From NCBI GenBank assembly GCA_902563555.1, contig CACEXM010000004.1, positions 6,174 through 70,173 on the forward strand: 64,000 nt of DNA. Reading direction: 5' to 3'. The stretch comes from an uncultured Pelagibacteraceae bacterium. Its GTDB lineage: Bacteria > Pseudomonadota > Alphaproteobacteria > Pelagibacterales > Pelagibacteraceae. Below the pieces are notes generated by a model. The model ran no database searches. It had not been told where the DNA came from and saw nothing but the letters and a program-made list of their open reading frames with translations. This document shows, one piece after another, positions 11,462 through 39,918 of the stretch; positions within the stretch are counted from its first letter, which is position 1, and each line of letters starts with the position of its first letter. Made by a program: the position numbers and the translations under genes.

Positions 11462-13041
11462 ATTTTACTTAATTCCCATTCAATATTGACATTTTTTTCA
11501 TTTGTAATTCCAGAGATAAATATATTTTGATTTTCAATATAAGTTTTTTTATTACCGAAATATAAACCATTATCAATGTCAATTTTATAATTATTACAAG
11601 TAAATCTCCAACCTTCAGCATCCATTTCGATTAATATTGATTTATGGTCTTGAGTTTTCATTATTTTTGCAAGAGGATTCAGATGAAATCGTATATCAAA
11701 TTTAACATTAGGAATTATTTTTTTAGAGTTAAGTCTTTCAACTCCTTTTAATTTATTAATTTTTGGGAAAAATTGAATTTCTCTCTCATAAATTAGGTTA
11801 TATTTCTTCAAAAATCCATCATGTGAAGCGACTATTTTCCATTCATCTTTTTCAAAGCTTATTTTTTTTATGTCAGTTTTTAAACCATCTTTAATTTCAA
11901 ATTTAGAGTGTGAATTTTTAACAAATTTACAAGATGAATTATCATCAACAACTAAGACGTTGTGTACCGCTGAAGATTTTGATACTTTTTTGAATTCAAA
12001 ATTTCCATCATCATAATAACCTGCGTTAGTGAATATTTTTTTTCCGTTTGAAACAAATTCAAATGATAGTGCACCAGCCTGGTATTCATCTGAAAATTTT
12101 TTATTTGGCGATGAACCAACATCCATTATTAAATTTATTTTTTTATCTTTTAAACTTACATAATCTGAAAATTCATGATCGTTATTCTTAAATGAATAAC
12201 CAAGTCTTTTTAGATAAATGTCAAATTCTTGATTATTAGAATTATTGTTTCCATTAAACAAAGGATCAAATTTTAAATTTTTCCAAAAAAAAGCATAAGA
12301 TTGTCCAAGATTAAAAATACTCTCATCAATAAAATTTGGTATTTCTGATTGAGACTCTTTAAACCACTCCCTTATGAGTATTAGATATTTAAGAAAAAAA
12401 ACAGAGGACTTAATATTTCTTGATTTGGGAAAACCATTATCATCAATTGTATATCTGATAATTTTTTTAAGATTTTCTAAACCTTTTATTGTAAAATTTT
12501 TTTCATTTTTGTAAGCTAGGCCTACAAGGATAATTGCTGCAACTCCTCTAATTTTATTATTAAGTTTACTTTCTTTATCTATTTGGTTTATTAAATGGGA
12601 CGCTTGTTTGTGTATGATTAAGCTATAATCTTTTTGATAATGGTTTTCTGCGTTATCATAAGTAAGAGCTGTGTTAGATAACCAGGATATAATTCTTTTT
12701 GATGTTACCTCAAAGTTCCAATTTTTTGAATTATACTTATGGTTTTTCTCTATCCAATTTTTGATTACAGTCTGAACAGATTTGTTTGATGATTTTAAAT
12801 CAAGACTAAAAAGCCAATAAAAATTATTTAATTTTTGTAATTGTTTTTGGTTTAATTTTTTATCTGTCCAGAAGTTATTAAATGAAAAATTATCAATATT
12901 AAATTTTTTTGAGCTTATTTTAACAATGGATGATAGTAAATATGAGCTTGGCTTATATTCTAGTTCGTAAATTGTTTTAGGTGATATTTTTTTATCATAG
13001 AATATAGAATTAAGATAAATCTGTTTTATAATTTCAAACAT
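11458..13041 (-). CDS. Heparinase II/III-family protein
   Basis: AGALSFE, S.AVHN.L, ASHDG, IRFHL.P; usual position upstream of purH in alphaproteobacteria. Confidence 0.8.
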   Translation of the reverse strand: MFEIIKQIYLNSIFYDKKISPKTIYELEYKPSSYLLSSIVKISSKKFNIDNFSFNNFWTDKKLNQKQLQKLNNFYWLFSLDLKSSNKSVQTVIKNWIEKNHKYNSKNWNFEVTSKRIISWLSNTALTYDNAENHYQKDYSLIIHKQASHLINQIDKESKLNNKIRGVAAIILVGLAYKNEKNFTIKGLENLKKIIRYTIDDNGFPKSRNIKSSVFFLKYLILIREWFKESQSEIPNFIDESIFNLGQSYAFFWKNLKFDPLFNGNNNSNNQEFDIYLKRLGYSFKNNDHEFSDYVSLKDKKINLIMDVGSSPNKKFSDEYQAGALSFEFVSNGKKIFTNAGYYDDGNFEFKKVSKSSAVHNVLVVDDNSSCKFVKNSHSKFEIKDGLKTDIKKISFEKDEWKIVASHDGFLKKYNLIYEREIQFFPKINKLKGVERLNSKKIIPNVKFDIRFHLNPLAKIMKTQDHKSILIEMDAEGWRFTCNNYKIDIDNGLYFGNKKTYIENQNIFISGITNEKNVNIEWELSKI

Positions 13042-13070
13042 ATCTCAATAAAATCAATTTAGTCTAATAA

Positions 13071-13730
13071 TTAAATTGATTTTAATAAATCAATATTTTT
13101 TTTAATATCCCCATCATTACTTTTAAAAATGGTAGTCCCAGAGACCAAAATATCTACTCCTGACTCAATCGCTAACTTATAATTTTCAAAATTTATTCCA
13201 CCATCTATTTCAATATCAAAATGAAATTTTAAATTTTTTCTAATTTTATCAAGTTTTTTTACTTTTTCTAGAACCTCAGGCATAAATTTTTGTCCCCCAA
13301 ACCCTGGATGTACACTCATTATTAAAATTAGATCTACTTGATTTAAAAATTTTTCAACAACTTCAACCTTAGTTTCAGGATTTAATGATATTCCTACTTT
13401 CTTTTTCAGTTTCTTAATTTTATTTATAGAGTCTGAAAGATTATCCGTTGCTTCTGGATGTATTGTTATAATATCTGCACCAGCATTTGAATAACTCTCA
13501 ATATATTTATGGACTGGTGATATCATTAAATGTACATCAAAGGGTAGTGATGAATTTTTTTTTAGTGCCTCGATAACAGGAGGTCCGATAGTCAAATTAG
13601 GTACAAAGTGGCCATCCATAACATCAACGTGAATCATATCAGCACCTGCATCTTCCAATTTTTTTATTTCTTTTCCTAATTGACTGAAATCTGCAGATAA
13701 AATTGAAGGTGAAATTTGTATTTTTTTCAT
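13071..13730 (-). CDS. rpe: Ribulose-phosphate 3-epimerase
   Basis: PSILSADF, HVDVMDGHFVPN, DVHLM, MSV.PGFGGQ, IDGG. Confidence 0.98.
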   Translation of the reverse strand: MKKIQISPSILSADFSQLGKEIKKLEDAGADMIHVDVMDGHFVPNLTIGPPVIEALKKNSSLPFDVHLMISPVHKYIESYSNAGADIITIHPEATDNLSDSINKIKKLKKKVGISLNPETKVEVVEKFLNQVDLILIMSVHPGFGGQKFMPEVLEKVKKLDKIRKNLKFHFDIEIDGGINFENYKLAIESGVDILVSGTTIFKSNDGDIKKNIDLLKSI

Positions 13731-13770
13731 AGGCTATTAAATTAACTAGTACCAAATTTTAAAATCTAAT

Positions 13771-14115
13771 TTAATTAAAAAATTGATAAATTTGTCTTGA
13801 AATCTCGCTTTCTAACGGAAAAGATAGCATACCCATCACTGAGTATCCCAAAACCCAAGGCATAAAGTAAAACCTTATCATGAAAAAAAACCAAGCAACA
13901 TAAAGGGGAACAATTGGTTGAATTATAAAAGATGGAGTTAGAGGTTTAAATAAGTTAATTAGAGGATTAGTAAATTTAACAAAAACTTTCATAAAAAAAA
14001 ATTGAGAGTCTTCTTTTTGAAAAATATTCATTGCAACTCTTCCAATTAAAGTCCACATGATTACTCCTAAAATATAGTCAATTATATAAACTAAAGGGTG
14101 AAAGTTAGCCGACAT
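13771..14115 (-). CDS. Small membrane protein, YggT-like
   Basis: Hydrophobic helices, FTNP....F..LTP pattern. Confidence 0.6.
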   Translation of the reverse strand: MSANFHPLVYIIDYILGVIMWTLIGRVAMNIFQKEDSQFFFMKVFVKFTNPLINLFKPLTPSFIIQPIVPLYVAWFFFMIRFYFMPWVLGYSVMGMLSFPLESEISRQIYQFFN

Positions 14116-14145
14116 TGAGAAATTTATATTGGAAAAAGATTGAAA

Positions 14146-14173
14146 TTAAAAGGGGCGAAATTAATCGCCCCTT
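14146..14173 (-). terminator. Rho-independent terminator after the symporter
   Basis: AAGGGGCGA / TCGCCCCTT stem followed by a T run on the minus strand, 12 nt past the stop. Confidence 0.85.
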
Positions 14174-14185
14174 AATAAAGATTAT

Positions 14186-16000
14186 TTAGTGTTGTTTGCC
14201 AAGGATCGATTTACCAGCTGGTACTCGAACCTCATCAACCATTTTCTGTGTAGCAGCGTTAGGTGCTTGTGTCATCAAACTGACTACAACCATAGCTACT
14301 AAGCTGACAGCCGAACCAAAGATACCAAATGTTAACTGAGTAATACCTAAGAATCCACTTCCACCTGTTCTTACCCAAACTAGGTAAGCAGCACCGGAAA
14401 TTAATCCTAAAGCCATACCAGCAATAGCACCTTCTTTGTTAGCTCTCTTCCACCATACACCAAGTACTAGTGGGAAGAATAGTCCTGACATCGCAAAGTC
14501 AAAAGCCCAGATTACTGAACCTAAAATACCTTGGATCTCAAGAGCTGCGATTGTTGCTCCTGCAAAACCAATTACTACAAGTAATACCCTTGCAACAACT
14601 AGTCTCTTCGCAGTCTCAGCTTTTGGATCGATGATCTTATAGTAAACATCGTGTGAGATTGCGTTTGCAATTGCTAAAATCAAACCATCAGCTGTTGACA
14701 TGGCAGCAGCCATACCTCCAGCAGCAACCAGACCTGAGATCACATATGGTAATCCAGCTATTTCTGGAGTTGCTAACACAACGGCTTTACCACCCATGAA
14801 AAACTCATTTAATTCGAGTGTTCCATTTCCGTTAAAGTCGCTTACAAACATTAAGTTTGCTTGGTTCCAGTTTTGATACCAATCTATCGCTTGAACTTCT
14901 GAAATTGATTTACCAATAATACCTGTTGGTAGTGATGGATCAATCAATGACAACTTAGATAGTGTCGCTAACATTGGAGCAGAAGAATAAAGTAGGAAGA
15001 TAAAGAATAATGACCAACCTACTGATTTTCTAGCTGCTTTTACACTTGGGGTAGTAAAATATCTCATCATAACGTGAGGTAATGAAGCTGTTCCCATCAT
15101 CATTGCTAACGCTAATGAAATAAATGCCCAAGGTGTTGCGTTCACCGCTGAGTGAGCTTTAGTTATTCCAGCCAAACCTTTTGGTACTTCTTTTAGATTT
15201 TCAGCAGTGTTTTTAACAAAACCAAACTGAGCCTCTAATTCAGCTATTCTAGAAACTTCATCAGCTAACATGAAGTGAGGGAAGAAACCCGCACCCATTT
15301 TGTTACTGATCCAGAATACTGGTAACAAATAAGCTATGATAAGTACGATATATTGAGCCACCTGTGTCCAAGTTACTCCTCTCATACCACCAAGCATTGA
15401 ACAAAGTAAAATACTTATAAGCCCAACGTATACAGCGTATTGGAATGGAATATCAAGTGCAACAGATGCAATTGTACCTGTGGCGTTAATTTGTGCAGTC
15501 ACATAAGTAAATGAAGCAACAGTTAAAACGACTACCGCCATAAATCTACTTAAATTACCACCATATCTTGTACCAATAAAATCTGGAACTGTGTAACAGC
15601 CAAATTTTCTTAGGTAAGGTGCTAATAGTGATGCGACTAATACATATCCACCAGTCCAACCTACAAGCAGTGCCATATAACCGTAACCTTTAAAATAAAT
15701 ACCACCTGCCATTGCAACGAATGATGCACCAGACATCCAGTCTGCTGCTGTCGCCATTCCGTTGAACACAGTCGGCACTTGTCTTCCAGCTACGTAATAC
15801 GCATCAGCTTGAGCTGTACGCGATAGATAACCAATTATAGCATAGATGGCTACTGTAAAAGCAACGAAACAAATTCCAATTGTTTTTGCAGTCACGCCCA
15901 TCTGCTCGGCAATCGACATAATGATTATGAAAGCAAGGAAACCTCCTGTATAGATTCCATAAACCTTAGGCAGATTGTCTATAAAATTACCTTTAATCAT
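14186..16000 (-). CDS. Sodium:solute symporter, ActP/VC_2705-like (acetate/monocarboxylate candidate)
   Basis: YYVAGR, GMATAADWMSGASF, GGMRGVTWTQVAQY, LPHV, AAAMSTADG; next to DUF4212 and acs. Confidence 0.9.
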   Translation of the reverse strand: MIKGNFIDNLPKVYGIYTGGFLAFIIIMSIAEQMGVTAKTIGICFVAFTVAIYAIIGYLSRTAQADAYYVAGRQVPTVFNGMATAADWMSGASFVAMAGGIYFKGYGYMALLVGWTGGYVLVASLLAPYLRKFGCYTVPDFIGTRYGGNLSRFMAVVVLTVASFTYVTAQINATGTIASVALDIPFQYAVYVGLISILLCSMLGGMRGVTWTQVAQYIVLIIAYLLPVFWISNKMGAGFFPHFMLADEVSRIAELEAQFGFVKNTAENLKEVPKGLAGITKAHSAVNATPWAFISLALAMMMGTASLPHVMMRYFTTPSVKAARKSVGWSLFFIFLLYSSAPMLATLSKLSLIDPSLPTGIIGKSISEVQAIDWYQNWNQANLMFVSDFNGNGTLELNEFFMGGKAVVLATPEIAGLPYVISGLVAAGGMAAAMSTADGLILAIANAISHDVYYKIIDPKAETAKRLVVARVLLVVIGFAGATIAALEIQGILGSVIWAFDFAMSGLFFPLVLGVWWKRANKEGAIAGMALGLISGAAYLVWVRTGGSGFLGITQLTFGIFGSAVSLVAMVVVSLMTQAPNAATQKMVDEVRVPAGKSILGKQH

Positions 16001-16260
16001 TAGTCATCTCCTTTTTCACTGAAGCCGAACTCTTCATCAATTTTTTCTTGCCTATTTGCAAACCAAAAAATTAGTATTACAAATATTCCAAGAGATCCCT
16101 GACATGTGAACCAATAAGTCAATGGATAACCAAATGGTCCCGTGACTTCGTTCATTTCTGCTCCGAAAAGGAAGATGCCAATTGAGAATACAAACCAAAT
16201 TGCTAACGTCATCATCAGCAAACCCTTGGATTTTTCCCAGTGTTGTTCTTGTTTTGACAT
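16000..16260 (-). CDS. DUF4212 small subunit of SSS transporter
   Basis: HW......L.IWF.FS, GYPL.YW...QGS, IDEEFG; GAGAGG RBS; stop overlaps symporter start. Confidence 0.88.
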   Translation of the reverse strand: MSKQEQHWEKSKGLLMMTLAIWFVFSIGIFLFGAEMNEVTGPFGYPLTYWFTCQGSLGIFVILIFWFANRQEKIDEEFGFSEKGDD

Positions 16261-16385
16261 TTATACCTCTCTCTTTTTAGTTATAACTGCATAAAACCAT
16301 AACCATTATCAAAGAGATTTAAAGTGTTAAAATTGTTCAAAATCCCTCTATTTTTGGGATATATATAATAAAAATATCAATTTTT

Positions 16386-17009
16386 ATGGGTAAATATAAA
16401 CTTACTTGGAGAGATCTCACATGGAGAGATTTTAAAATTTACCTGTTCGCTCTTTTTAAAGCTTTCATCCCCAAAAAAAAAATTAATAATCTTGATGATC
16501 TAGAGGAATTTATTCAATCCAAGTCAGCCTGGGTAACTCAAGTCACCCTTTATGGATATTTAAAAACAAGAATGGGAACACGTTATGTTCTTCATTTTGA
16601 AAATGATGATTTTATGTCATCAGTTAACTTGGCAAAATGGAACATTTACTCAGTAGCACTGCAAGATCTTACTTTATATACGTTTTCTTACCTTAAAAAT
16701 AATTTCAATTATAATGATATTGAAAAATCTAAAGAAATTTTTTTAAAAATTTTAGATGATGAAATTTCTAACAAAATGCCAATTAATATCATAGACGTTG
16801 CAAAAGATAATTTTAGTGAGAGGTTGCACAACATAAACTGGGATAATTACTATAATGACCTTCCATTTAACTCTAGTGCATTATCATTATATAAATGGGC
16901 ACCTATCGCAGAAGAGTTAAAAAATTTAGATAGAAAAATTGTTTTAAATTCAGTTATCTTAAAATGGGATACTGTAAAAAAAGAATTTCAAGAAAGAATA
17001 AATTTTTAA
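16386..17009 (+). CDS. Conserved hypothetical protein
   Basis: 207-aa ORF filling the gap between symporter operon and acs; [13 protein letters not shown] motif. Confidence 0.75.
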
Positions 17010-19093
17010 TTATTTTTTCTGTTCTCAACTAAACTGTTAACAACATTTGGATCTGCTAAAGTGGTAGTGTCACCTAACTGACTGTGTTCATTGGCTGCAA
17101 TTTTTCTTAAAATTCTTCTCATGATTTTTCCAGATCTAGTTTTAGGTAATCCTGGAGTAAATTGTATAAGATCAGGTGTTGCTAATGGGCCAATTTGCTT
17201 TCTTACCCATAGTTTCAATTCTCTTTCTAGATCACCCGTTTCCGTCTCTCCAGCATTAAGTGTAACATAACAGTAAAGTCCATTACCTTTTATATCATGA
17301 GGATAACCAACAACAGCTGCTTCAGCAACTTTGGGATGTGCAACAAAAGCACTTTCAATTTCCGCCGTTCCAAGATTGTGACCTGATACAATTATAACAT
17401 CGTCTACTCTTCCAGTTATCCAATAATAACCATCTTTATCTCTACGACATCCATCTCCAGTAAAGTATTTACCATCGAATTGAGAAAAGTAAGTGTCAAT
17501 AAATCTTTGATGATCGCCATAAACTGTTCTCATTTGTCCTGGCCAAGATTGAGAAATGCAAAGTCTACCTTCTCCTGCTCCTTTTATTTCTTTTCCATCT
17601 TTGTCAACTAAACATGGTTTTATTCCATAAAAGGGTTTGGTTGCAGAACCAGGTTTAAGCGGAATAGCTCCTGTCTGAGGTGCAATAAGTATTCCTCCTG
17701 TTTCTGTTTGCCACCACGTATCAACTATTGGACATTTTGAATTACCAACAGTCTTGTAGTACCACATCCAAGCTTCAGGATTTATTGGTTCTCCAACAGT
17801 ACCTAATAATTTCAGTGATTTTCTTGATGTTTTATTGACCGGATCACTACCCTCTCGCATCAATGCTCTAATGGCAGTTGGCGCGGTGTAAAATGTATTA
17901 ACTTTATATTTGTCGACTATTTGCCACCATCTGGAGCTATCAGGGTAATTAGGTATACCTTCAAACATTATAGTTGTAGCTCCATTAGAAAGTGGACCAT
18001 ATATAATATAACTATGTCCGGTGACCCATCCAATGTCTGCCGTGCACCAATAAATATCTTTAGGCTTGTAGTTAAATATATATTGATGAGTCATTGATGC
18101 GTAAACCATGTATCCCCCAGTAGTATGCAAAACACCTTTCGGTTTACCAGTAGAGCCTGAAGTATAAAGTATAAACAGTGGATCTTCCGCATTCATCTCC
18201 TCAGGTTCGCAGTGAGCTGGAACATCCTTGATTAAATCGTGATACCAAACGTCTCTATCATCATCCCAAAATACGTAATTTCCAGTTCTTTTAACAACAA
18301 TACACTTTTTAACATTTGGACAGTTTGTTAATGCCTCATCAGTGGTAGCTTTTAAAGGTATTTTTTTTCCTCCCCTGATACCTTCGTCCGCAGTAATTAT
18401 ATACTCTGACTCACAATCGTTAACTCTTCCCGAAATAGATTCAGCTGAAAACCCTCCAAATATAATAGAATGAATTGCACCAATCCTTGCACAAGCTAGC
18501 ATTAAAACTGCTAACTCTGGTATCATAGTCAAATAAATTGTAACTCGATCTCCTTTTTTAATTCCAAGTTTTTTTAATCCATTTGCAGCTTTTGATACTT
18601 TTTGATGTAATTGTTTATAAGAGATTTTTTGACTGTCTTTAGGATCATCACCAACCCAAATGATAGCAGTCTTATCTTTTTTATCTTTTAAATGTCTATC
18701 AATACAGTTTGCTGATGCATTTAAAGTTCCGTCTTCAAACCATTTAATTCTAACATCATCTTTACTATATTTAACATCTTTAATCTTCTTGTAGGATTTT
18801 ATCCAAGTAATTCTTTTTCCTTCTTTTTTCCAGAAGGTGTTATTATTTTTAATTGAGTCATTATACTTCTTTAGGTATTGGGCTTTATTTGCGAGACCAC
18901 TTTTAATCCATTCAGGTTTAGTTTTTATTATTAATTCAGAAACTGATGAGCTTTCTTTTTTATTTTGTTTTTTCTTATTAGATAAAGTATTTCTTTTAAC
19001 TACTTTTTTATATTTAAGACCTTTTTTTTTGACTTTTCTTTTAGTTGTTTTTTTAATTTTTTTTTTACTTTTAGATTTTTTTCTTTTAGGCAT
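17006..19093 (-). CDS. acs: Acetyl-CoA synthetase with Lys/Arg-rich N-terminal extension
   Basis: [44 protein letters not shown]. Confidence 0.97.
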
Positions 19094-29821: not shown

Positions 29822-30889
29822 CTATTGAATTTTTTGCATTAGCCACAAACTATCTCCTGCTAAAAAATAAATTTTACCATTTTCTGGATGTACTTGTATA
29901 TCTCTTAATCTTCCAATTTTTTTTTGAAAAATAATATCTTCTTTTACATTTGATAAATCTTTAAATATCAGTTTTCTTAGAGATTGATCTTTCAATGATG
30001 TTATAAGTGCATGACCATTCCATTCACTAAATTCCTTACCTTTGTAAATTGTGATGGCACTTGTGGCAATTGAGGGTACCCAATAATGAATCGCTTTTGT
30101 GAAGCCTGGCTTCCATTTAGGTCCAATTGGGATACCAGAGTAATTTGTCCCTCCCCATCCTAAAATTTTCCAACCATAATTTTCACCTTCTTTAGCCTCA
30201 CCAAACCAATCTCCACCCCTTGCTCCGTGATTACTCATATAAATTTTTCCGTCAAATGGAGATAAAGTTAAACCTTGTGGATTTCTAATACCGATTTGAT
30301 ATATTTCTGGAAGCCAGTTGGATTTCCCTTTAAATCTAGGATTGTCTCGTGGAATACTGCCATCTAGATTTATTCTGATAATACTTCCTGGATGTTTTGT
30401 TGGATCTTGCGCAATCATACCCTCACCTCTTTCACCAGCAGATGCAAAAAGATAGTCATCTTTAATCGCTAATCTTGATCCAAAATGATAACCAGAATTA
30501 ATAGGAGGATTTGCTTGGAAAATATTTTCAAATTTTAATTCTTTTTCGGCAAATTTTGTTTTTGCAATTGAGGTGCTGGTTTTACCATTACCTCTATTTT
30601 CTGTGTAAGATACATAAATAAAATTATCTTTAAAAAGAATATCTAGTAATCCACCTTGACCATGTTCTAAAAAGTTAAGATTGTGCTTTATTTCAGAAAT
30701 TTGTTTTGAAATAATGTTTACAACTTTTATTTTTCCACTTTTTTCAGTTATAATTAGCTCTTCATTATTAATAAATGATGAGCCCCAAGGACCGTTTAAA
30801 TCCACAATTTTTTCTAAATTAAAATTTTTTGCAAATGAGAGGTTTGTTAAGAGTAAGAATAAAGATACTGAGAAAATAAACTTTTTCAC
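29822..30889 (-). CDS. PQQ-dependent (aldose) sugar dehydrogenase family, GTG start at 30889
   Basis: Signal peptide, GQGGLLD, HFGSRL, G.RNPQG, HG.RGGD, NYGW, R.RD. Confidence 0.88.
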   Translation of the reverse strand: MKKFIFSVSLFLLLTNLSFAKNFNLEKIVDLNGPWGSSFINNEELIITEKSGKIKVVNIISKQISEIKHNLNFLEHGQGGLLDILFKDNFIYVSYTENRGNGKTSTSIAKTKFAEKELKFENIFQANPPINSGYHFGSRLAIKDDYLFASAGERGEGMIAQDPTKHPGSIIRINLDGSIPRDNPRFKGKSNWLPEIYQIGIRNPQGLTLSPFDGKIYMSNHGARGGDWFGEAKEGENYGWKILGWGGTNYSGIPIGPKWKPGFTKAIHYWVPSIATSAITIYKGKEFSEWNGHALITSLKDQSLRKLIFKDLSNVKEDIIFQKKIGRLRDIQVHPENGKIYFLAGDSLWLMQKIQ

Positions 30890-30890
30890 T

Positions 30891-31601
30891 TTACGAGAGC
30901 TTTGATCTTCCACCATCAACTGCTATAATTTGACCTGTCACCCATGAGCTATCATCTGTAATAAGAAATTTGGCTAAAGACGCTGAGTCTTTTCCCTCAC
31001 CCAATCTCTTTAATGGATGAGCTTTTGCAATTCCATCTGCTAAGGCCTTATTTTTTAACATTGGTTCAGCGATTTTAGAATTGGTTAAACTTGGTGCAAT
31101 ACAGTTTACTCTTATGTTTGGAGCAAATTCTGCAGCCAAAGAAACTGTTAAACCCTCAACAGCAGCTTTTGTAGAGGCAATTATTGCATGATTTGTAAAA
31201 CCTCTTTGAGCAGCAACTGTAGAAAATAAAACGACCGAACCTTTATTTTTTTTCAAAATATCCTGATATCCCTTTATAACCTCGACTGCAGAGTATAAAT
31301 TTAATTTCATACACTTATTAAAATCTTGCTCATTCACCATTCTTAAAGGTTTCAGATCAATTGAACCCACACAATAAGCAATACCTTTTACATCAGAAAT
31401 ATCACTTTTAACCTTATCCACAAATCCATCTTGCAAAACATCAGCTATTGTAAATGCACAACCTAATTTTTCAGAAATATTTTTAGTTTCATTTTCATTT
31501 CTACCAACTAAATGAACTGAATTCCCTGAATTTACTAATTGTTCAGCCAAACTAGAACCGATGGATCCTGTCGCACCAAAAATAAGATATTTTTCTGACA
31601 T
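30891..31601 (-). CDS. Short-chain dehydrogenase/reductase
   Basis: GATGSIG, FSTVA, S.KAA.EGL, IRVN.IAP, WVTGQ.I.VDGG; catalytic YxxxK appears as IASTK. Confidence 0.9.
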   Translation of the reverse strand: MSEKYLIFGATGSIGSSLAEQLVNSGNSVHLVGRNENETKNISEKLGCAFTIADVLQDGFVDKVKSDISDVKGIAYCVGSIDLKPLRMVNEQDFNKCMKLNLYSAVEVIKGYQDILKKNKGSVVLFSTVAAQRGFTNHAIIASTKAAVEGLTVSLAAEFAPNIRVNCIAPSLTNSKIAEPMLKNKALADGIAKAHPLKRLGEGKDSASLAKFLITDDSSWVTGQIIAVDGGRSKLS

Positions 31602-31628
31602 AAAAATTTTTATTAGTTATATTTAAAT

Positions 31629-33119
31629 ATGAAGTTATTTTTTATACTTGGCAATCAATTATTTCCACCAAAATACTTGGACCGCTTCAAAAAAGACCAC
31701 CTATTTTTTATGGCAGAAGATTACCAATTATGCACTTATGAAAAACATCATAAAAATAAAATCCTTCTTTTCTTATCATCAATGCGTTCACATGCGGAGT
31801 CTCTTAAAAAGGATAAGTTCAAATTAGAATATTCGAGAATTGAAGATAAAGAATTTAAAGATGACTATTTAAAAAAATTAAAGAAATTAATTAATTCAAA
31901 AAAAATAAAAGAAATTTCGAGTTTTGAAATTGAGGATAAATTTTTTGAGAAAAAAATTGATCAATTCACAAAAAAAGAAAAAATTAAATGGAATATTGTG
32001 CAAACTCCTATGTTTTTAAATTCGAGAGATGAATTTAAACAATATTTATCAAAATCAAAAAAACCTTTTATGGCAACTTTTTATAAAGAAGTTAGAAAAA
32101 AATCCGGCATATTAATGGGTTCAGATGGAAATCCTATAGGAGGTAAATGGAGTTTTGATGAAGATAATAGAAATAAGTTACCAAAAAATATCTCTATTCC
32201 AAAATTCCCAAAAATTAATGAGACTAACCATACTAAAAAATTAAAACCTATTATTGAAAAACTATTCAAAGATCATCCAGGAACAACCAAAAACTTTTGG
32301 CTTGCTACAGAATTTAATGATGTGGTCAAATTATTAGATTTTTTTATTAAAGAGAAATCTAATTTATTTGGTGATTATGAGGACGCTGTGGATCAAAAAG
32401 ATAATATTTTATTTCACAGTGCTTTAAGTCCTTACATTAACCTAGGATTAATAACGCCTGAATTTATTATAAAAAAAGTTTTAGATTTCCATAAGAGTAA
32501 AAAAATCAAATTAAATTCTTTAGAAGGTTATGTGCGTCAAGTCATAGGATGGAGAGAATTTATGAGAGGAATTTATCAAAGTTATTCAAACGAAATGGAA
32601 ACTAGAAATTTTTTCAAACAAAATCGCAAAATGAAAAAATCATGGTATGAAGGTACAACTGGTTTACCACCACTAGATTATGCAATCAAAAATGCTTTAA
32701 ATCATGGATGGTCTCATCACATTGAAAGATTAATGATTTTATCTAACATCATGAATCTTTGTGAAATAAAGCCTACCATTGTTTATAAATGGTTTATGGA
32801 AATGTTTGTAGATTCCTCAGATTGGGTAATGGTGCCTAATGTTTATGGTATGGGATTATTTAGTGATGGAGGAATATTTGCTACAAAACCATATATATGT
32901 GGCTCAAGTTATTTTATGAAAATGATGGATTTTAAAAAAGGTGATTGGTGCAACATAATGGATGGGTTGTATTGGAGATTTATTGATAGAAATAGAAAAT
33001 TTTTTTTGAAAAATCCAAGGTTATCCATGATGGTTAGAATTTTCGACAAAATGAAAAATGATAGAAAAAAATTAATTCTTCCTGCTGCAGAAAAATTTAT
33101 TAAACAAAACACACTTTAG
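31629..33119 (+). CDS. PhrB/CryB-type prokaryotic (6-4) photolyase, apparently without Fe-S cluster
   Basis: ILGNQL, HK.KI....SMR, P.GGKWSFD..NR, FG.YEDA, HS.LS...N.GL, EG..RQ.IGWRE, HHIERLM, WV..PNV.GM....DGG...TKPY. Confidence 0.92.
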   Translation: MKLFFILGNQLFPPKYLDRFKKDHLFFMAEDYQLCTYEKHHKNKILLFLSSMRSHAESLKKDKFKLEYSRIEDKEFKDDYLKKLKKLINSKKIKEISSFEIEDKFFEKKIDQFTKKEKIKWNIVQTPMFLNSRDEFKQYLSKSKKPFMATFYKEVRKKSGILMGSDGNPIGGKWSFDEDNRNKLPKNISIPKFPKINETNHTKKLKPIIEKLFKDHPGTTKNFWLATEFNDVVKLLDFFIKEKSNLFGDYEDAVDQKDNILFHSALSPYINLGLITPEFIIKKVLDFHKSKKIKLNSLEGYVRQVIGWREFMRGIYQSYSNEMETRNFFKQNRKMKKSWYEGTTGLPPLDYAIKNALNHGWSHHIERLMILSNIMNLCEIKPTIVYKWFMEMFVDSSDWVMVPNVYGMGLFSDGGIFATKPYICGSSYFMKMMDFKKGDWCNIMDGLYWRFIDRNRKFFLKNPRLSMMVRIFDKMKNDRKKLILPAAEKFIKQNTL

Positions 33120-33250
33120 TGAAAAAAGAAAATCTTCCATCTAAAATCTGTATTGTTTGTAAGAGACCTTTCAATTGGCGAAGAAAATGGAAGCTAAATT
33201 GGGACAGCGTTAAATATTGCTCAAAAAGATGTTCTAGCAAAAAAATATGA
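33119..33250 (+). CDS. DUF2256 small Cys-rich protein (43 aa, below the ORF-track cutoff)
   Basis: GTG overlapping the photolyase TAG; MKKENLPSKICIVCKRPFNWRRKWKLNWDSVKYCSKRCSSKKI*; stop overlaps next ATG. Confidence 0.92.
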   Translation: MKKENLPSKICIVCKRPFNWRRKWKLNWDSVKYCSKRCSSKKI

Positions 33251-33780
33251 ACTTAGAAAAATATAAATGGAAAAGTAGAATTTTACTTGTTTCTACAACA
33301 AGTTATAAGGATAGAATTTATCTAGAGGCAAAAAAAATATATCAAGATAAAATAAAAGATTTTCATAAAAGATTTGTAAAATTAATTTGTAAAATTAATA
33401 AGCAGGAAAAATCATCAATTGATTTAATTGGTTTTGATGGCAAATCTAAAAAAAAGATGAATAACCTTAATCATAAAAAAATTTTTAAAATTATAGACAA
33501 AATGCCATTAAGTAAAAAATCTAAACCTATAAATTTATCGCTGTATTCAGATTATAATCCTAAGACTACTACTCATGGGTTAGGATTCAAAAATAAAGAA
33601 AAAGCTCTTTACACAATTAGAACTATTAAAAATCGTTCAATTAAGTATCAGGTAAATGTTATTGCAACCATGCTGGGTAGAGCAAAGAACCATCCTAACA
33701 AAACTAGGGATATGGAGGATGCTATAAAAATATTTGGTGATTGGATGAAAAAGTATAAAAGTAAAAAAAATGAAAATTAG
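33247..33780 (+). CDS. DUF4174-like domain fused to an unassigned C-terminal domain
   Basis: L.KYKWK.R.LLV...LIG.DG..K...IDKMP, then LYSDYNPKTTTHGLGFKNKEKA...M.GRA. Confidence 0.7.
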   Translation: MNLEKYKWKSRILLVSTTSYKDRIYLEAKKIYQDKIKDFHKRFVKLICKINKQEKSSIDLIGFDGKSKKKMNNLNHKKIFKIIDKMPLSKKSKPINLSLYSDYNPKTTTHGLGFKNKEKALYTIRTIKNRSIKYQVNVIATMLGRAKNHPNKTRDMEDAIKIFGDWMKKYKSKKNEN

Positions 33781-35215
33781 AATAATTAATTATTTAAAGA
33801 AATTAGTAGTTTTGTTTTTTCTATTAATCCCAAATAATCTGCATGCTGATTTTTTTGAAGATATAACAAGCCAAATTGCTGAGAATCCTAAAAGACTTAG
33901 TTATGGAGTTTCCGTCACCGATATAAATCAAGATGGAAATTTTGATTTTATAGTTACTGGATTTGGTTATTTGAATTTAGCTTTATCATATGAGAATGGA
34001 AAACTGATTAATATTGTAAATCAAAAAAAATTTTCTGATGAATTTAGAAGAACAATTGGTGTTGCTGCATGCGATATAGATAGAGACGGATATGAGGAAA
34101 TATATTTTCTCAATACCGACACATATAGTGGAACAAAAAAATATTCAGATAGATTGATAGACTTAGATAAGGGTAATTTTATTGATTTATTTGAAATTGA
34201 GAAAAATCAAAAAGATCTCAATTTAACTGCTGGGAGGTCAGTTGTTTGTGTTGATAGAAAAGGAGATGGCAATTATGGTGTATATGTTGCTAACTACGGA
34301 GGACCCACAAGATACTACGAATATAATGATGACATAATAGTTGATAAATCTGTTCAATTGAATCTGGCGAAAGTTACAGGTGGACGTGCTGTCGTGGCTG
34401 GACACATCATTTCTGATAAAATTGATATATTTGCAGCCAATGAGAGAGGAGCAAATTTTTTATACAAAAATGACGAGGGTAAATTTTTAGATGTCGCATA
34501 CGAATATAGAGTTCAAGACGTACTTCAAAATGGGAGAGGTACAGCTTTGTCAGATATTTATTACCGAGGAAGACTTGATATTTTAAATGGAAATTGGGGA
34601 GGATTTCACAGAGCATATGTGCTTAAAAATGATATTTTTGAGGATATAGCAAAGCCACCTTTTGATGAGCCGTCAAGAATAAGAACTGTTATTTCAGCTG
34701 ATTTAGATAATGATGGTTATGATGAAATATTCTTGAATAATATTGGTGAACCCAACAAACTTTTTAGAATTTTAGAGAATGGTTTGGTAAAACAAATACC
34801 TGTCGATATTGGTTTAGAACCAGATGGATATGGAACTGGAGCAGCAGTTGCCGATATAGATAACGACGGTATATTAGAATTATTAGTTTCCCACGGAGAA
34901 AGCAGAGATCAGCCATTGTCTTTGTATAAAGCAAAGGTGAATCCTCAACACAAATATTTAAGGATTAAACCCCTAAATAAATATGGGGCGCCTGCGAGAG
35001 GAGCAACAGTAACATTGATTTCAAATTTAAGAAAACATTCAAAAACAATTGACTCTGGTTCAGGGTATCTATGCCAAATGGAACCAGTAGCTCATTATGG
35101 TATTAGAAAAAATGAAAAGAATATAAAAATAGAGGTTAGATGGACAAATGGAAAAACTAAAATGATCTCGGTAAAAAATCTAAATCAAACAATTACTTTA
35201 AAACAAAATAACTAG
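33770..35215 (+). CDS. CRTAC1-like secreted protein (FG-GAP beta-propeller plus ASPIC/UnbV domain)
   Basis: Signal peptide; repeated D.D.DG motifs (TDINQDG, CDIDRDG, ADLDNDG, ADIDNDG); GSGYLCQMEPVAHYG; VRW..G. Confidence 0.9.
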   Translation: MKIRIINYLKKLVVLFFLLIPNNLHADFFEDITSQIAENPKRLSYGVSVTDINQDGNFDFIVTGFGYLNLALSYENGKLINIVNQKKFSDEFRRTIGVAACDIDRDGYEEIYFLNTDTYSGTKKYSDRLIDLDKGNFIDLFEIEKNQKDLNLTAGRSVVCVDRKGDGNYGVYVANYGGPTRYYEYNDDIIVDKSVQLNLAKVTGGRAVVAGHIISDKIDIFAANERGANFLYKNDEGKFLDVAYEYRVQDVLQNGRGTALSDIYYRGRLDILNGNWGGFHRAYVLKNDIFEDIAKPPFDEPSRIRTVISADLDNDGYDEIFLNNIGEPNKLFRILENGLVKQIPVDIGLEPDGYGTGAAVADIDNDGILELLVSHGESRDQPLSLYKAKVNPQHKYLRIKPLNKYGAPARGATVTLISNLRKHSKTIDSGSGYLCQMEPVAHYGIRKNEKNIKIEVRWTNGKTKMISVKNLNQTITLKQNN

Positions 35216-35685
35216 TTTAAGGGCTGAAGAACTCTATTTATAAAATGGATTATACCATTAGAAGTTTCAACATCAGCAGTTACAACTTCAGCTTCATTTA
35301 TATAAACTATACCATTAACTTTTTTTATAGTTATTTCTTCACCATTAATTGCTTTGAGTTTAATCTCACCTGCAACTTCTGAAGAAGGAATTTTTTTGGA
35401 AAAAACGTGTCGTCCTAAAATATTTACAAGTTTATCTTTGTTTTCCTCTCTCAACAGACCATAATATGTTTGTGCACTAATTGCTGCAAATGCGTCATCT
35501 AAAGGTGCAAAAACAGTAAATGGTCCTTCACTTTTTAAATTCTCACTTAATCCTGATTTCATTAAGGTTTCGTTTAATTTTGTAAATTTACCGGTTTCCT
35601 TCAATTTATCAATTACATTTCCAAATGTTATCGATGGGATAATCATCATGGCAAGTGTTAAAAATATTATGTGAAATTTTTTCAT
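35212..35685 (-). CDS. Fasciclin (FAS1) domain protein
   Basis: Signal peptide, GPFTVFAP.D.AF, IL..HV, NGIIH.I..VL.P. Confidence 0.93.
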   Translation of the reverse strand: MKKFHIIFLTLAMMIIPSITFGNVIDKLKETGKFTKLNETLMKSGLSENLKSEGPFTVFAPLDDAFAAISAQTYYGLLREENKDKLVNILGRHVFSKKIPSSEVAGEIKLKAINGEEITIKKVNGIVYINEAEVVTADVETSNGIIHFINRVLQPLN

Positions 35686-35768
35686 TGGACTTTAATAACT
35701 TTAAATTTATAATTTGAAAGTAAATTAAGTGCGACAAATAATAAAAATTTTTTAAATTAATTAAATCA

Positions 35769-36470
35769 ATGAATTTTTCAAAAACTATTTTTAGATTTGT
35801 AATTATTTTTATCCTTACTTTATCTTTTTCCAATATTTCAAATTCAGTGGAAAAAAATTATTATAAAGATTTAATAACAGATTGGTCCAGAATATTTCCT
35901 GACAGCAACAGAAATGCTGCTGGTCCAAAATTCTTCAAATATATAATTGATAAAGACATAAATTATGAAGACTTCATTGAATACAACAAACTTTATTGTG
36001 CTGTTTCTGGTTCATTGATTGATCCCAATAGTGACCCTGATTTTTTATTTATCAGTGAGAGAGGAACTAAAAATAAAATTTGTGGTAATTACTATAAATG
36101 TTGTATTCCGTGTTCTTGTGATATTATGAAATATTCTGAAGTTGAAAGGATGAAATATAAATTTAAAGACGGAATCAAGGAGTTTTTTGTTTTTACAATT
36201 AAAAATCCCTGCAACAAAGAAGATTTTCCAAATAGGGTTAATAAAGATTATTTCTGTGATGGAGAGAAAATAAATAACAAACAGGTTTATGATTTAAATG
36301 GCCGAATAGTAATTGGTTTATTGCATAACGGTAAAAGCTGCAGAAAAGATGAGATAGATTTTGTAAAAAATCATCAGATAACTGGTAGATTTTGTGAATT
36401 TAGAAATAATACACCCATAGAGAATTTAGAGGCAGGCATGGGCGATATCTTTATTAAACTTGCAAGATAA
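35769..36470 (+). CDS. Secreted Cys-rich hypothetical protein
   Basis: Signal-like N-terminus; 10 Cys including CGNYYKCCIPCSCD. Confidence 0.8.
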   Translation: MNFSKTIFRFVIIFILTLSFSNISNSVEKNYYKDLITDWSRIFPDSNRNAAGPKFFKYIIDKDINYEDFIEYNKLYCAVSGSLIDPNSDPDFLFISERGTKNKICGNYYKCCIPCSCDIMKYSEVERMKYKFKDGIKEFFVFTIKNPCNKEDFPNRVNKDYFCDGEKINNKQVYDLNGRIVIGLLHNGKSCRKDEIDFVKNHQITGRFCEFRNNTPIENLEAGMGDIFIKLAR

Positions 36471-36475
36471 AAATT

Positions 36476-36697
36476 ATGGATAATAAGATTTTTGAATGGG
36501 CAGGAGTTATAACAGCAATATTATATTCATTATTCGTAGCTATGAATATTGGTATTGAATTTTTTGGTTTTTGCTTATTACTTTTGTCTGCAATTTTAAT
36601 TGGAATTTGGGCGTATAGAGGTGGTCATAGAGGAATATTATTTTTACAATTCTTTTACGCAACGGCAGGAATTATCGGAATGTTTAGGTGGTTTTAA
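36476..36697 (+). CDS. Small three-helix membrane protein, hypothetical
   Basis: 73 aa, almost entirely hydrophobic, 5 nt after the upstream stop. Confidence 0.7.
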   Translation: MDNKIFEWAGVITAILYSLFVAMNIGIEFFGFCLLLLSAILIGIWAYRGGHRGILFLQFFYATAGIIGMFRWF

Positions 36698-37833
36698 TTG
36701 AAAGTTGAAATTATTTTTGGAATATAATTTTTAAAATTAAAAAAACCTTTGTTGCAATATTGCCAAGAATACTGATCAAGTTTTCTATATAAAAAAGTTA
36801 TTTTTGAGTTATTTAAATTTAAATAATCTAAGTTTTCACCAACCGAGGGATATAAACCATAACAGTTTTGAATATCTTTTATTTCACTTATACTGATCAT
36901 CTCATAATCAATAGACTTGGCTTTTAACCTTTGTTTTTGGTCTTCAATTAAAAGGGATTTAAATTTTAGAACTTTTTCACCCAGCTTAATAGATCTATTA
37001 TTATTTTCATTTGAAATTAAATAAATTTTTTTAAATTTATAATTTTGAAAATCAGTAATTTCAAAAGCAAGATTATTATCAAAAATTAATAGACTTTTAT
37101 CTTCAATATTTTGAGGATTACTAAAATCTTGTTTTATTATTGAGTAAGTTTTTTCAGATACTTTTGGAGGAGCATTTTCATTTAACTTAATATTATTGAA
37201 TCTGTTAGCAGTGAATTTTTTAATGTTCCATTCGCTCGCCAAATAATGTTTTCCTTGTGTTTGAACTCCAGCAACCCATCTCCATCCAAGAGTATTGGAC
37301 GCAGCATCGCCGTCATATAGATGTTGCATAAAAAATTCTGCACCTAATTGCCAAGGTAATTCTAGAGTAAAAATCCAAATACTGGCGAACCACATCCTTG
37401 TATGATTGTGTAAATAATTATTTTCTTTTAGTTCGATTACCCATTGATTAAAGCAATCTATCTTTGTTTTTCCTTCAATTGCATTTTTATAATTTTGATT
37501 ATTTTTTAAATTTTCCTTAATTTTAGTTAATTCTGTTAAATAATCTGACCAAACATTTGGTCTTAATTCTAGCCAGCCCTTCCAATATGTGCGCCATAAT
37601 ACTTCTTGTATAAATTTTTCATTTTTTGAAAAAGAAAATTTACCTAGAGATTTTTTAATGATCTCTTGTTCATTAACAATTCCATGAGTTATATATGGTG
37701 ACAAACAAGAAACATTTGATCTTTTATCTGGACCAAAATCAAAATTTCTAAGCTTTGAATATTCTGTAAGGTTGTTTTCAACAAAACTTTCTAATCGATC
37801 TAAGGCCTTAGCCCTTGAGGGTTCAAAATTCAT
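36694..37833 (-). CDS. Photolyase-family protein with FAD domain first (NewPHL-like inverted topology)
   Basis: Starts at Y...RN.D..., VS.LSPY, KFIQEV.WR.YW, YLHNH.RMWFAS.W, DGD.ASN.L.WRWVAG, then a ~140-aa C-terminal domain. Confidence 0.88.
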   Translation of the reverse strand: MNFEPSRAKALDRLESFVENNLTEYSKLRNFDFGPDKRSNVSCLSPYITHGIVNEQEIIKKSLGKFSFSKNEKFIQEVLWRTYWKGWLELRPNVWSDYLTELTKIKENLKNNQNYKNAIEGKTKIDCFNQWVIELKENNYLHNHTRMWFASIWIFTLELPWQLGAEFFMQHLYDGDAASNTLGWRWVAGVQTQGKHYLASEWNIKKFTANRFNNIKLNENAPPKVSEKTYSIIKQDFSNPQNIEDKSLLIFDNNLAFEITDFQNYKFKKIYLISNENNNRSIKLGEKVLKFKSLLIEDQKQRLKAKSIDYEMISISEIKDIQNCYGLYPSVGENLDYLNLNNSKITFLYRKLDQYSWQYCNKGFFNFKNYIPKIISTFN

Positions 37834-37839
37834 TTAAAA

Positions 37840-38220
37840 CTATTTAGATTTTTTTTTCTTAAGACCTAATTTATCACTATGTCTTAATCTCAAGATTACA
37901 ATAGCACCAGCAATTAAAACTATTGCAACTGCCTCATAAACCAATGCAGTAGGGTCCATTTCTTTACCTTGAAGAATAATAAATCGAGCAAGTGCAGTAA
38001 TTGCTATTAGTAGTGGTAACGTAATACTGATTGATTGCTGGTTCCAAAAAACTCTAACCATTGCAAGAACTTCTAAATAAAGAAACATTAATAACAAGTC
38101 AGCTAACGTTACAGACATGTTTTGATACATTTTATAAATTTCAATACCTACAGCAATTACTGTGCTTATTAAAATAATGCACATTAGTATAAGTTGTAGA
38201 TTCTTAGCTATTTTTTCCAT
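37840..38220 (-). CDS. PsiE-family membrane protein
   Basis: LADLLLMFLYLE...M, LPL.IAITALAR.IIL. Confidence 0.85.
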   Translation of the reverse strand: MEKIAKNLQLILMCIILISTVIAVGIEIYKMYQNMSVTLADLLLMFLYLEVLAMVRVFWNQQSISITLPLLIAITALARFIILQGKEMDPTALVYEAVAIVLIAGAIVILRLRHSDKLGLKKKKSK

Positions 38221-38672
38221 TATTTGTCCTTACTAAATGGCAACCATTTTTCAAACACTGATTTTGATGGACCATCATATGGAATAGTATACGAGTTAGT
38301 ATTTGTTAAAACTTCAATACCCTTAGAAAAAACAAAAATAAACACTATAACAAATACAATAACCATAATTTTAAATGGATCAAAATTCTTTGTTTGAAAG
38401 ACGCTGGTCGATTTTTCCTCAGCTTTATGGAATTGTTTGAATGTCATATAGACTGCAAATATAAGACCGATATGTGCCAAGTATGTTCCAGCCCAGCCAA
38501 AAGCAAAAGTCGTATATGAAAATACATACAAACTAAATACAGTTGTCCATATAAAACTTAGGACTAGTAATATTTGTAATCTAACAGCCTTAGGTAGTGA
38601 TCTTAAATCATTTTTACTATCATCAAACAATATATTGGCTGAGTCTTGCATCCATTTTTTTAAATTGTCCAT
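38220..38672 (-). CDS. Hypothetical membrane protein
   Basis: Three hydrophobic helices; N.LR.LP...R.Q....L...W...FS. Confidence 0.75.
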   Translation of the reverse strand: MDNLKKWMQDSANILFDDSKNDLRSLPKAVRLQILLVLSFIWTTVFSLYVFSYTTFAFGWAGTYLAHIGLIFAVYMTFKQFHKAEEKSTSVFQTKNFDPFKIMVIVFVIVFIFVFSKGIEVLTNTNSYTIPYDGPSKSVFEKWLPFSKDK

Positions 38673-38697
38673 AAAACTAAGTTATGTTTTTTTTCAG

Positions 38698-38724
38698 AAT
38701 TGACAATGTAAAAAATTGTCAATT
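38698..38724. promoter_or_regulatory. Perfect 10-bp inverted repeat, candidate operator
   Basis: AATTGACAAT-7 bp-ATTGTCAATT in the spacer between argG and the 38672 ATG. Confidence 0.5.
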
Positions 38725-38733
38725 TTTCTTGAG

Positions 38734-39918
38734 TTATCTTAATTTTTTTTTATGAAAATTTATAAATTTTTCAACGTTAGATTTATTGAAGGATTTATTT
38801 TCCTCAAATGAAACCTTTTTCATTGAATATGCTTTACTTTTTGTAATTCTTGATTGAATAATAATATTTCCTTTATAAAGCTTAAGTTTTACAGTTCCAT
38901 TTACTTTATTTCTTTTGAGGTCGACGATTTTTTGAAGTTTAAACCTTTCTTTTGAAAACCAATATCCATTGTAAATTAATTCTGCATATCTAGACATGAT
39001 GGAGTCTTTTTTATGCATTGTGTTTTTGTCTAATGTTACAGACTCTATAGCTCTATGTGCATGAATAAGAAGTGTACCACCAGGTGTTTCATAAACTCCT
39101 CTAGATTTTATACCAAGAAATCTATTTTCAACTAAATCAACTCTTCCAATACCGTTTTTACCAGCTATTAAATTAAGTTTTGTTAAAATTTTCTCAGGAT
39201 TATATTTTTTTCCATTAATACCAACTGGGTCTCCATTTTTAAAATTTATGGATATAAATGTAGCCTTATTAGGAGCTTTCTCTGCAGAAACCGTTCTTTG
39301 AAAAATAATTTCTGGAGCAGAATTTTTAGGATTTTCTAAAACTTTTCCCTCGGTAGAGGTATGAAACAAGTTATCATCAACAGAAAAAGGTGTGGAACCT
39401 GCTTTATCTTTAGGTATGGGTATTTTGTATTTTTTTGCATATCTAATAAGATCTGTTCTAGATCTTAAATTCCAAATTCGCCAGGGTGCTATTATCTTAA
39501 TCTTTGGACCAAAAAAATGATAGCCAAGCTCAAATCTTACTTGATCATTTCCTTTACCGGTGGCTCCATGAGATACTGCATAAGCTTTATATTTTTTTGC
39601 AATTTTTATTTGATCTTTTGCTATTAAAGGTCTTGCAATTGAGGTACCCAATAAATATACGCCCTCATAAATCGCGTGACCTCTGATCATCGGAAAAACA
39701 TAATCTTTAACAAAAATATTTTTTAAGTCTTTTATTATAATATTTTTTACCCCAAATTTTTTTGCATTTTTGATTATCTTTTTTTTATCTATCACTTGAC
39801 CAATATCAGCCGTGTAACAGATTACTTCGGCATTATAATTTTTTTGAAGCCATTTAAGTATTATGGAGGTATCTAGTCCTCCAGAATAAGCTAATACAAT
39901 TCTTCTGTTTTGTGTCAT
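38734..39918 (-). CDS. argG: Argininosuccinate synthase
   Basis: LAYSGGLDTS, GTSIARP, HGATGKGNDQVRFE, KSRGVYETPGG. Confidence 0.97.
   Translation of the reverse strand: MTQNRRIVLAYSGGLDTSIILKWLQKNYNAEVICYTADIGQVIDKKKIIKNAKKFGVKNIIIKDLKNIFVKDYVFPMIRGHAIYEGVYLLGTSIARPLIAKDQIKIAKKYKAYAVSHGATGKGNDQVRFELGYHFFGPKIKIIAPWRIWNLRSRTDLIRYAKKYKIPIPKDKAGSTPFSVDDNLFHTSTEGKVLENPKNSAPEIIFQRTVSAEKAPNKATFISINFKNGDPVGINGKKYNPEKILTKLNLIAGKNGIGRVDLVENRFLGIKSRGVYETPGGTLLIHAHRAIESVTLDKNTMHKKDSIMSRYAELIYNGYWFSKERFKLQKIVDLKRNKVNGTVKLKLYKGNIIIQSRITKSKAYSMKKVSFEENKSFNKSNVEKFINFHKKKLR

Follow-up and report, generated by a model that had tools for sequence, protein, structure and literature searches.

A CRTAC1-like protein and a predicted exported ten-cysteine protein as an inherited pair in SAR11 and in a variable slot of its photolyase locus

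Introduction

The RpoE-ChrR regulon of Rhodobacter sphaeroides holds a photolyase, an SDR oxidoreductase and a fasciclin protein, as set out in the accessible part of the source (PMC7074977), and the same three kinds of gene occur in a window of 64,000 nucleotides (contig CACEXM010000004.1, positions 6,174 to 70,173, assembly GCA_902563555.1) from an uncultured Pelagibacteraceae bacterium. Eleven genes lie in this window between a sugar dehydrogenase gene and argG, among them two photolyase genes, a gene for a CRTAC1-like propeller protein and a gene for a predicted exported protein with ten cysteines, referred to here as the Cys protein. The analysis describes this block as a conserved SAR11 photolyase locus, in which a variable slot is bordered by an SDR, a (6-4) photolyase and DUF2256 at one end and by a NewPHL photolyase at the opposite end. 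Inside that slot the genes for the CRTAC1-like protein and the Cys protein make up a unit of two that is inherited on its own, and this pair probably works as one exported ligand-binding unit at the cell surface. The locus differs from the Rhodobacter regulon in its photolyase classes, and both CRTAC1 and the Cys protein are absent from the regulon table seen (PMC7074977). Neither a ChrR-type cupin nor an extracytoplasmic function (ECF) sigma factor was found in the source genome (0.93 Mb, 78% complete), and only two sigma-70 genes were found there.

The photolyases of such a locus have described counterparts. According to the text available, an iron-sulphur-free (Fe-S-free) subgroup M of prokaryotic (6-4) photolyases lacks the cluster cysteines (PMC9178010). 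The NewPHL class is defined by the lack of an antenna domain, a flavin adenine dinucleotide (FAD) domain that comes first, the residues for repair of cyclobutane pyrimidine dimers (CPD) and a GFF motif (PMC7736829, as seen in part), and the short photolyase-like (SPL) proteins have the same features (PMC8476157, likewise). Three photolyase copies in SAR11 have also been noted (PMC5932025, in the section available).

Human CRTAC1 (9ETN) and bacterial ASPIC/UnbV proteins share with the window protein a signal peptide, an FG-GAP propeller and a UnbV/ASPIC domain. The human protein carries a C-terminal EGF-Ca domain and a tail (PMC10477339, in the part seen), whereas the window protein lacks both and ends after UnbV, with no EGF family found by Pfam. 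Unlike human CRTAC1, it is strictly paired with, and elsewhere fused to, an undescribed cysteine-rich domain.

The CRTAC1-like protein and its partner in SAR11

The window is placed in SAR11 because the closest relatives of its Cys gene, the best 80 of 571 matches in a genome-collection scan that is uninformative on other taxa, are all titled Pelagibacteraceae or Pelagibacter. The CRTAC1-like protein has a signal peptide, as read from its sequence, and is about 40% like human CRTAC1, to which it aligns (9etn) over residues 37-469 with an E-value of 2e-100.

Pairing of the two genes is strict. A CRTAC1-like gene is present in 102 of 251 SAR11-order genomes and the Cys gene in 101, and every one of these 101 carries CRTAC1 on the same contig at a gap of at most 762 bp. 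In a survey of 59 of the 101 pair loci, fetched to span the identity range, the pair was found in nine different contexts, with a tandem arrangement in one genus and a convergent one in two others. The CRTAC1 and Cys trees agree (patristic Spearman 0.83), and each context forms one clade in both, one context having an extra leaf in the Cys tree. Strict pairing, congruent trees and natural fusions in both orders, described below, are the reasons for regarding the pair as one unit. A predicted complex of the mature CRTAC1 and mature Cys proteins scored 0.00 in two runs, which is given no weight on either side of the question of binding. A search of 400 other genomes sampled from the phylum found no member of the Cys family, and neither did one of annotated phages.

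The ten-cysteine protein

The Cys protein has a signal peptide and exactly ten cysteines, as the sequence-only reading had counted. Six of the cysteines are invariant among 69 full-length sequences, and the CxPC motif, within CCxPCxCD, is kept in 69 of 69. Other cysteines come and go in pairs: C105 and C191 are both present in 15 sequences, both absent in 52 and discordant in 2, and C117 and C209 are both present in 63, both absent in 4 and discordant in 2, a paired gain and loss that fits structural disulfides. Polar residues R48, N49, S80, D118 and R212 and a terminal GMG (G223-M-G225) are invariant or nearly so.

Searches of Pfam, NCBIfam and PHROGs gave no match for the protein. Its predicted model is confident (pLDDT 89, pTM 0.82), and Foldseek found nothing at E <0.001 in PDB and BFVD. 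A further structural comparison gave 0 of 48,161 chains at Z >=2, a result that, as the tool warns, does not by itself prove a new fold, and an Atlas search with a stored Cys homologue returned unnamed clusters only, at scores <0.8. The family is an undescribed one, with a confident predicted model that lacks a matching solved fold. Neither the pair nor the Cys family was found described in the open-access literature, subscription papers on CRTAC1 evolution and on 9ETN lying outside this scope, and a SAR11 unknome paper contains no CRTAC, ASPIC or FG-GAP in its text or three supplements.

Fusions and homologues outside SAR11

A search with a Cys profile across 1.84 billion representatives produced 486 matches, some carrying both domains, and a targeted search yielded 40 long Cys homologues. 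Twelve of the 40 contain FG-GAP and UnbV, 9 DUF2237, 2 rhodanese, 2 PF02298 and 1 a kinase pair; 14 have no listed family. The CRTAC1 portions of these fusions share 40-49% identity with the window CRTAC1. Two fusions are Cys-first and 10 are CRTAC1-first, and the occurrence of both orders suggests that fusion happened at least twice. Resolution is poor in the 400-residue fusion tree, which served for domain order only.

Several fusions end in a hydrophobic tail, which suggests possible surface anchoring. One fusion cluster holds MMETSP members, and Pyramimonas, Amoebophrya and Aureococcus are among the organisms named as carrying the Cys domain; most fusions are likely from marine protists, an origin inferred here and not stated in the sources. 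An earlier search for homologues of 484-2000 aa had been blank (0 of 4,702 candidates), which is now regarded as a sensitivity miss since the profile search found fusions. Some fusion partners looked glutaredoxin-like, but Pfam did not confirm this, and P0215, a Cys/CRTAC1 hybrid of 91 aa, was excluded because it is probably a chimera.

The two genes are also immediate neighbours on 12 of 80 metagenome contigs with a guanine-cytosine (GC) content of 37-55%; this GC content and the neighbouring genes suggest that the contigs come from other marine bacteria. Two Cys homologues (P0158, P0159) have a lipoprotein-like leader and a long acidic linker and apparently belong to a high-GC bacterium. Twenty-one giant-virus loci carry the Cys domain at 26-53% identity. 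A C-terminal extension is seen in 10 of the 20 viral Cys open reading frames (ORFs) printed, and 2 of 3 tested gave a weak DUF2237 score. DUF2237, a family with PDB entries named in PMC13712998 and fused to the Cys domain elsewhere, is in this genome a stand-alone gene on another contig.

Layout of the photolyase locus

The sequence-only reading had placed eleven genes between the sugar dehydrogenase and argG, with neither a regulator among them nor a break in the phrB-to-CRTAC1 overlaps. All of these ORFs are present and Pfam agrees with them, no block protein matched a regulator family in Pfam or NCBIfam, and the overlaps are genuine. The features are listed in Table 1.

Table 1. Features of the block and its boundaries (window coordinates)
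29822-30919: GSDH sugar dehydrogenase, left boundary
30891..31601, minus strand: SDR oxidoreductase (Pfam adh_short_C2, E 1e-44), divergent from phrB and overlapping the GSDH start
31595..31623, plus strand: predicted sigma-70 promoter CTGACA-17-TATATT, 10/12 consensus match, ending 5 nt ahead of phrB
31629..33119, plus strand: (6-4) photolyase phrB, 496 aa (Pfam DPRP and FAD_binding_7)
33119..33250, plus strand: DUF2256 small Cys peptide (Pfam E 2e-20)
33247..33780, plus strand: DUF4174 fusion without signal peptide (Pfam E 6e-12, DUF4174 at residues 2-54)
33770..35215, plus strand: CRTAC1-like propeller protein, 481 aa (Pfam FG-GAP, UnbV_ASPIC)
35212..35685, minus strand: single-domain fasciclin with signal peptide (Pfam Fasciclin, E 6e-31)
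35769..36470, plus strand: 10-Cys predicted exported protein (no Pfam, NCBIfam or PHROG match)
36476..36697, plus strand: small membrane protein, 73 aa (no Pfam family)
36694..37833, minus strand: NewPHL/SPL photolyase, 379 aa (Pfam FAD_binding_7, without antenna domain)
37840..38220, minus strand: PsiE-family membrane protein (Pfam PsiE, E 7e-19)
38220..38672, minus strand: membrane protein, 150 aa (no family above cut-off)
38734-39918: argG, right boundary

Overlaps are 1 nt for phrB and DUF2256, 4 nt for DUF2256 and the DUF4174 fusion, and 11 nt for the DUF4174 fusion and CRTAC1. The genes fall into five strand-separated units: the SDR (minus); phrB, DUF2256, the DUF4174 fusion and CRTAC1 (plus); fasciclin (minus); the Cys gene with the 73-aa gene (plus); and the 150-aa gene, PsiE and NewPHL (minus). 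Each of the three secreted genes, namely CRTAC1, fasciclin and the Cys gene, is in a different unit, and only CRTAC1 among them can be read from the predicted phrB promoter. The GC content is 25-35% across the window and 27-31% in the block, the same as in the flanks, so the block is not a compositional island; it shows neither the composition shift nor the fixed gene set of a horizontally acquired island. Elsewhere in the window, positions 13000-19000 have a GC content of 33-39% against about 26% around them.

The two photolyases

The phrB product matches PDB 5kcm/4dja over its full length (E 2e-83). It resembles Agrobacterium PhrB (4DJA) and Rhodobacter CryB (3ZXS) in that length, in both substrate-side tyrosines and in an HHIER (His-His-x-x-Arg) motif, which we take to have a role in prokaryotic (6-4) photolyases. 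Unlike those proteins it has Tyr in place of Trp342 and has lost the cluster cysteines: C350 is replaced by Pro, C438 and C441 are deleted, and one Cys stands near C454. With at most one of the four left, the protein is not an FeS-BCP, and its sequence fits an Fe-S-free prokaryotic (6-4) photolyase of the PromaPL/subgroup M type. Such an enzyme is encoded by 228 of 251 SAR11-order genomes, as against 101 with the pair, a difference that speaks against one co-regulated island; one of the genomes tallied is unpublished, and no conclusion depends on it alone.

The second photolyase had been called atypical, yet it belongs to the described NewPHL/SPL class. It aligns to 1tez from residue 3, with an N-terminal FAD domain and without an antenna domain, and its orthologues keep the repair Glu, Asn-Arg-Met and the C-terminal Z-domain GFF in 25 of 25. 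Domain order, repair residues, GFF and co-occurrence with a (6-4) photolyase reveal no essential difference from NewPHL/SPL, and the protein is predicted to be an active CPD photolyase of that class. The two enzymes would repair (6-4) and CPD lesions using FAD and light, as expected from family knowledge. A third, class I-like photolyase gene lies on another contig of the same genome.

The variable slot and its passenger genes

Seventy of the best 80 of 571 loci reach both photolyases. In these 70 close loci the SDR lies beside PhrB in 68, as a conserved left flank, and DUF2256 is a fixed phrB companion in 70, while the slot between the photolyases shows 15 arrangements, the exact window arrangement being found in 25. 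The DUF4174 fusion is present in 55, the 73-aa membrane gene in 53 and fasciclin in 42. In 8 phrB loci of genomes without the pair at the site, other genes fill the slot; the 73-aa gene is kept in 5 of these 8 and is a slot passenger independent of the pair.

Fasciclin matches occur in 17 of 251 genomes, comprising 14 orthologues at 79-100% identity and 3 distant matches in genomes without the pair. All 14 orthologues stand between CRTAC1 and the Cys gene in one lineage, that is, in 14 of 101 pair genomes. The proposal of an exported, uncharacterised module therefore survives for the pair, but not as a trio with fasciclin. PsiE and the 150-aa gene move together; the slot is without them in several lineages and they are found jointly elsewhere, and the 150-aa gene had no family above cut-off in profile scans. 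Fasciclin, the DUF4174 fusion, the 73-aa gene and the PsiE/150-aa genes are passengers.

Matches to the DUF4174 fusion were found in 11 giant-virus-type contigs (L254-L264) at 50-64% identity, mostly over the full length, and one of them (L261) shares its viral bin with the nearest viral homologue of the Cys protein (L071). Short, very basic ORFs of 36-45 aa, with no Pfam match above cut-off, recur after the Cys gene in the slot and near nth/dapB (L019:8744-8881, L053, cluster c66).

Promoters and regulation

The arrangement of the predicted phrB promoter is alike in most of the 8 orthologous upstream regions shown, and the phrB transcript is likely leaderless. Promoter-like sites are overall fewer than in shuffled sequence (43 vs 61.5). 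In this lineage, read-through from the predicted phrB promoter probably accounts for the transcription of CRTAC1. No upstream motif shared among the units was seen by eye in orthologous upstream regions or in a consensus scan, formal motif discovery not being part of this comparison, and Rfam gave no match in 26-43 kb of the window.

A perfect inverted repeat, TTGACAA-N9-TTGTCAA, lies at 38700-38722 upstream of the 150-aa-PsiE-NewPHL unit and is possibly a regulator site. Of the 6 orthologous upstream regions shown, 5 retain the form GACAA-N8/9-TTGTY; this loose pattern has 10 matches genome-wide, mostly inside coding sequence. RNA-library contigs of three studies cover all block genes, a record of presence only, without strand, level or co-transcription.

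Accessory genes near the pair

A second, unrelated photolyase-family gene that neighbours the pair in three contexts outside this slot (examples at L052:6522-7979, L067:8746-10188 and L265-L275) was considered as a class I CPD photolyase, an assignment dropped on alignment as the repair Glu and Asn are lost. It has two domains; at the position of the repair Glu 9 of 9 carry Arg, and the aligned member has Phe at that of the Asn. The available text defines NewCRY as a two-domain photolyase-family protein without the CPD-repair Glu and Asn (PMC7736829). The accessory gene resembles NewCRY and is a candidate for a blue-light receptor in SAR11.

About 101 of 251 genomes encode, in addition to the usual short form, a methionine sulfoxide reductase, MsrB, that starts with an export-like N-terminal leader (L065:8734-9183; G000 C1:109818-110264) and possibly provides periplasmic methionine-sulfoxide repair in SAR11. 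A link of msrB to the pair was promising in three loci and failed as a general feature.

Proposed mechanism and alternatives

Both proteins of the pair would be exported through their signal peptides. The CRTAC1-like sequence contains four clear copies of the Dx[DN]xDG loop, which in the CRTAC1 propeller we take to bind Ca2+; at these loops the propeller would be Ca2+-stabilised, acting as a scaffold. The Cys domain would be locked by about five disulfides, and its polar surface (R48, N49, S80, D118, R212, G223-M-G225) would bind or turn over an extracellular ligand. Some observations weigh against a surface unit of this kind. CRTAC1 is lacking in 28 of the 40 long Cys homologues and is nearby in 0 of the 21 giant-virus loci; because the Cys domain is so often alone, the CRTAC1 partnership is not universal. 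The pair is also met next to photolyase-family, cfa and msrB genes more often than would be expected of a pure passenger.

The same Cys domain could instead be a thiol-redox or metal-binding enzyme acting through CCxPCxCD, with the propeller presenting the substrate. The invariance of CxPC, the fusions to rhodanese and to PF02298 (2 of 40 each), and the DCC1-like thiol-disulfide, MsrB and CopC/CopD genes beside some pair loci are in its favour. However, the pairwise covariation of the cysteines fits structural disulfides, the protein has no thioredoxin-like or other fold match, and it is predicted to be exported into an oxidising compartment, all of which leave a redox or metal-binding role unlikely, although a redox role through CxPC is the main competitor of the mechanism above. 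Far less probable still is the original proposal that all eleven genes form one co-regulated ultraviolet (UV) island with three secreted proteins. The block is indeed tightly packed, the Rhodobacter RpoE regulon, in the part seen, does bring fasciclin, SDR and photolyase together (PMC7074977), and RNA-library contigs cover every part of the block. Yet the five strand units, the restriction of the window's slot content to 25 of 70 close loci and of fasciclin to 14 of 101 pair genomes, the GC content equal to that of the flanks, and the failure to find a shared promoter motif, ChrR or ECF sigma in the incomplete genome count heavily against it.

A closer competitor to the surface-unit reading holds that the pair is the extracytoplasmic arm of a light or photo-oxidative stress response and was selected into light-responsive operons. 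This is considered doubtful, though it has the most to recommend it of the alternatives. A photolyase-family gene lies within about 8 kb in 33 of 59 pair loci. The NewCRY-like gene is present in 29 of 251 genomes, 22 of them with the pair, within 5.3 kb of it in 18 of the 22, and in three genomes shares 4 nt with the start of the Cys gene; a Fisher test of this gene against the pair gave P 7e-5, a value not relied upon as kin are not independent. In one genome of a second family, a cfa-DUF1365-amine oxidase trio stands 36 nt ahead of CRTAC1 (L064:10216-13298), and such genes (RSP_2144/1090/1091-like) are listed in the RpoE regulon of Rhodobacter in the part of the source seen (PMC7074977). In the viruses, 4 of 4 loci tested have UvdE close to the Cys gene, and the DUF2237 found fused in 9 of the 40 long homologues is, in the passages available, enriched in phototrophs, with phototaxis reduced on its knockout (PMC5932025, PMC13712998). 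The proposed linkage of the secreted genes to photolyases is nevertheless only partly borne out in other genomes. No photolyase-family gene is nearby in 26 of 59 pair loci, and the 33 positives collapse to 4-5 of 9 contexts; among the matches listed, 67 pair genomes have phrB coordinates, with 37 within 3 kb and 30 not. Five non-SAR11 contigs of 6-10 kb are without a photolyase, one shorter contig having an Fpg/Nei gene. As a control gene, the exported MsrB is adjacent in 2 contexts but in just 3 of 65 genomes with both, partly by hand count, which puts the background at which accessory genes meet the pair near 0.2 per context. At that background, 4 of 9 contexts have P ~0.09 (~0.008 at 0.1). 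Most viral UvdE cases are moreover one synteny block, and neither a common upstream motif nor a ChrR or ECF sigma was found in the regions shown and the incomplete genome. The text examined of an HTCC1062 light/dark paper, its supplements excluded, names no photolyase (PMC3090418). Given the recurrence near photolyase-family genes, the light link may be real; it is suggestive, not established, and a function specifically in sunlight or photo-oxidative protection is given about one chance in three.

Significance

The photolyases are ordinary and the island as first proposed adds little; the novelty lies in the pair, its fusions and the unmatched fold. A broader and rather improbable reading is that the ten-cysteine protein is a new-fold, disulfide-locked domain and the ancestral working partner of CRTAC1, carried on the cell surface by SAR11, other marine bacteria, protists and giant viruses, either by itself or joined to CRTAC1 or DUF2237. 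It would belong to a system that is shared across the sunlit ocean, shields or repairs the envelope against photo-oxidative damage and was recruited repeatedly into photolyase/cryptochrome operons. If this were true, the CRTAC1 family would for the first time become accessible to biochemistry.

To our knowledge, human CRTAC1 has a solved structure and no settled molecular function. Because CRTAC1 has a strict partner, its function can be put to a direct test, and the natural fusion is a ready construct. About 40% of the sampled genomes of the ocean's most abundant and most streamlined bacteria keep both proteins through nine relocations. If the light link is true, the pair would add a surface arm to the UV tolerance of surface plankton.

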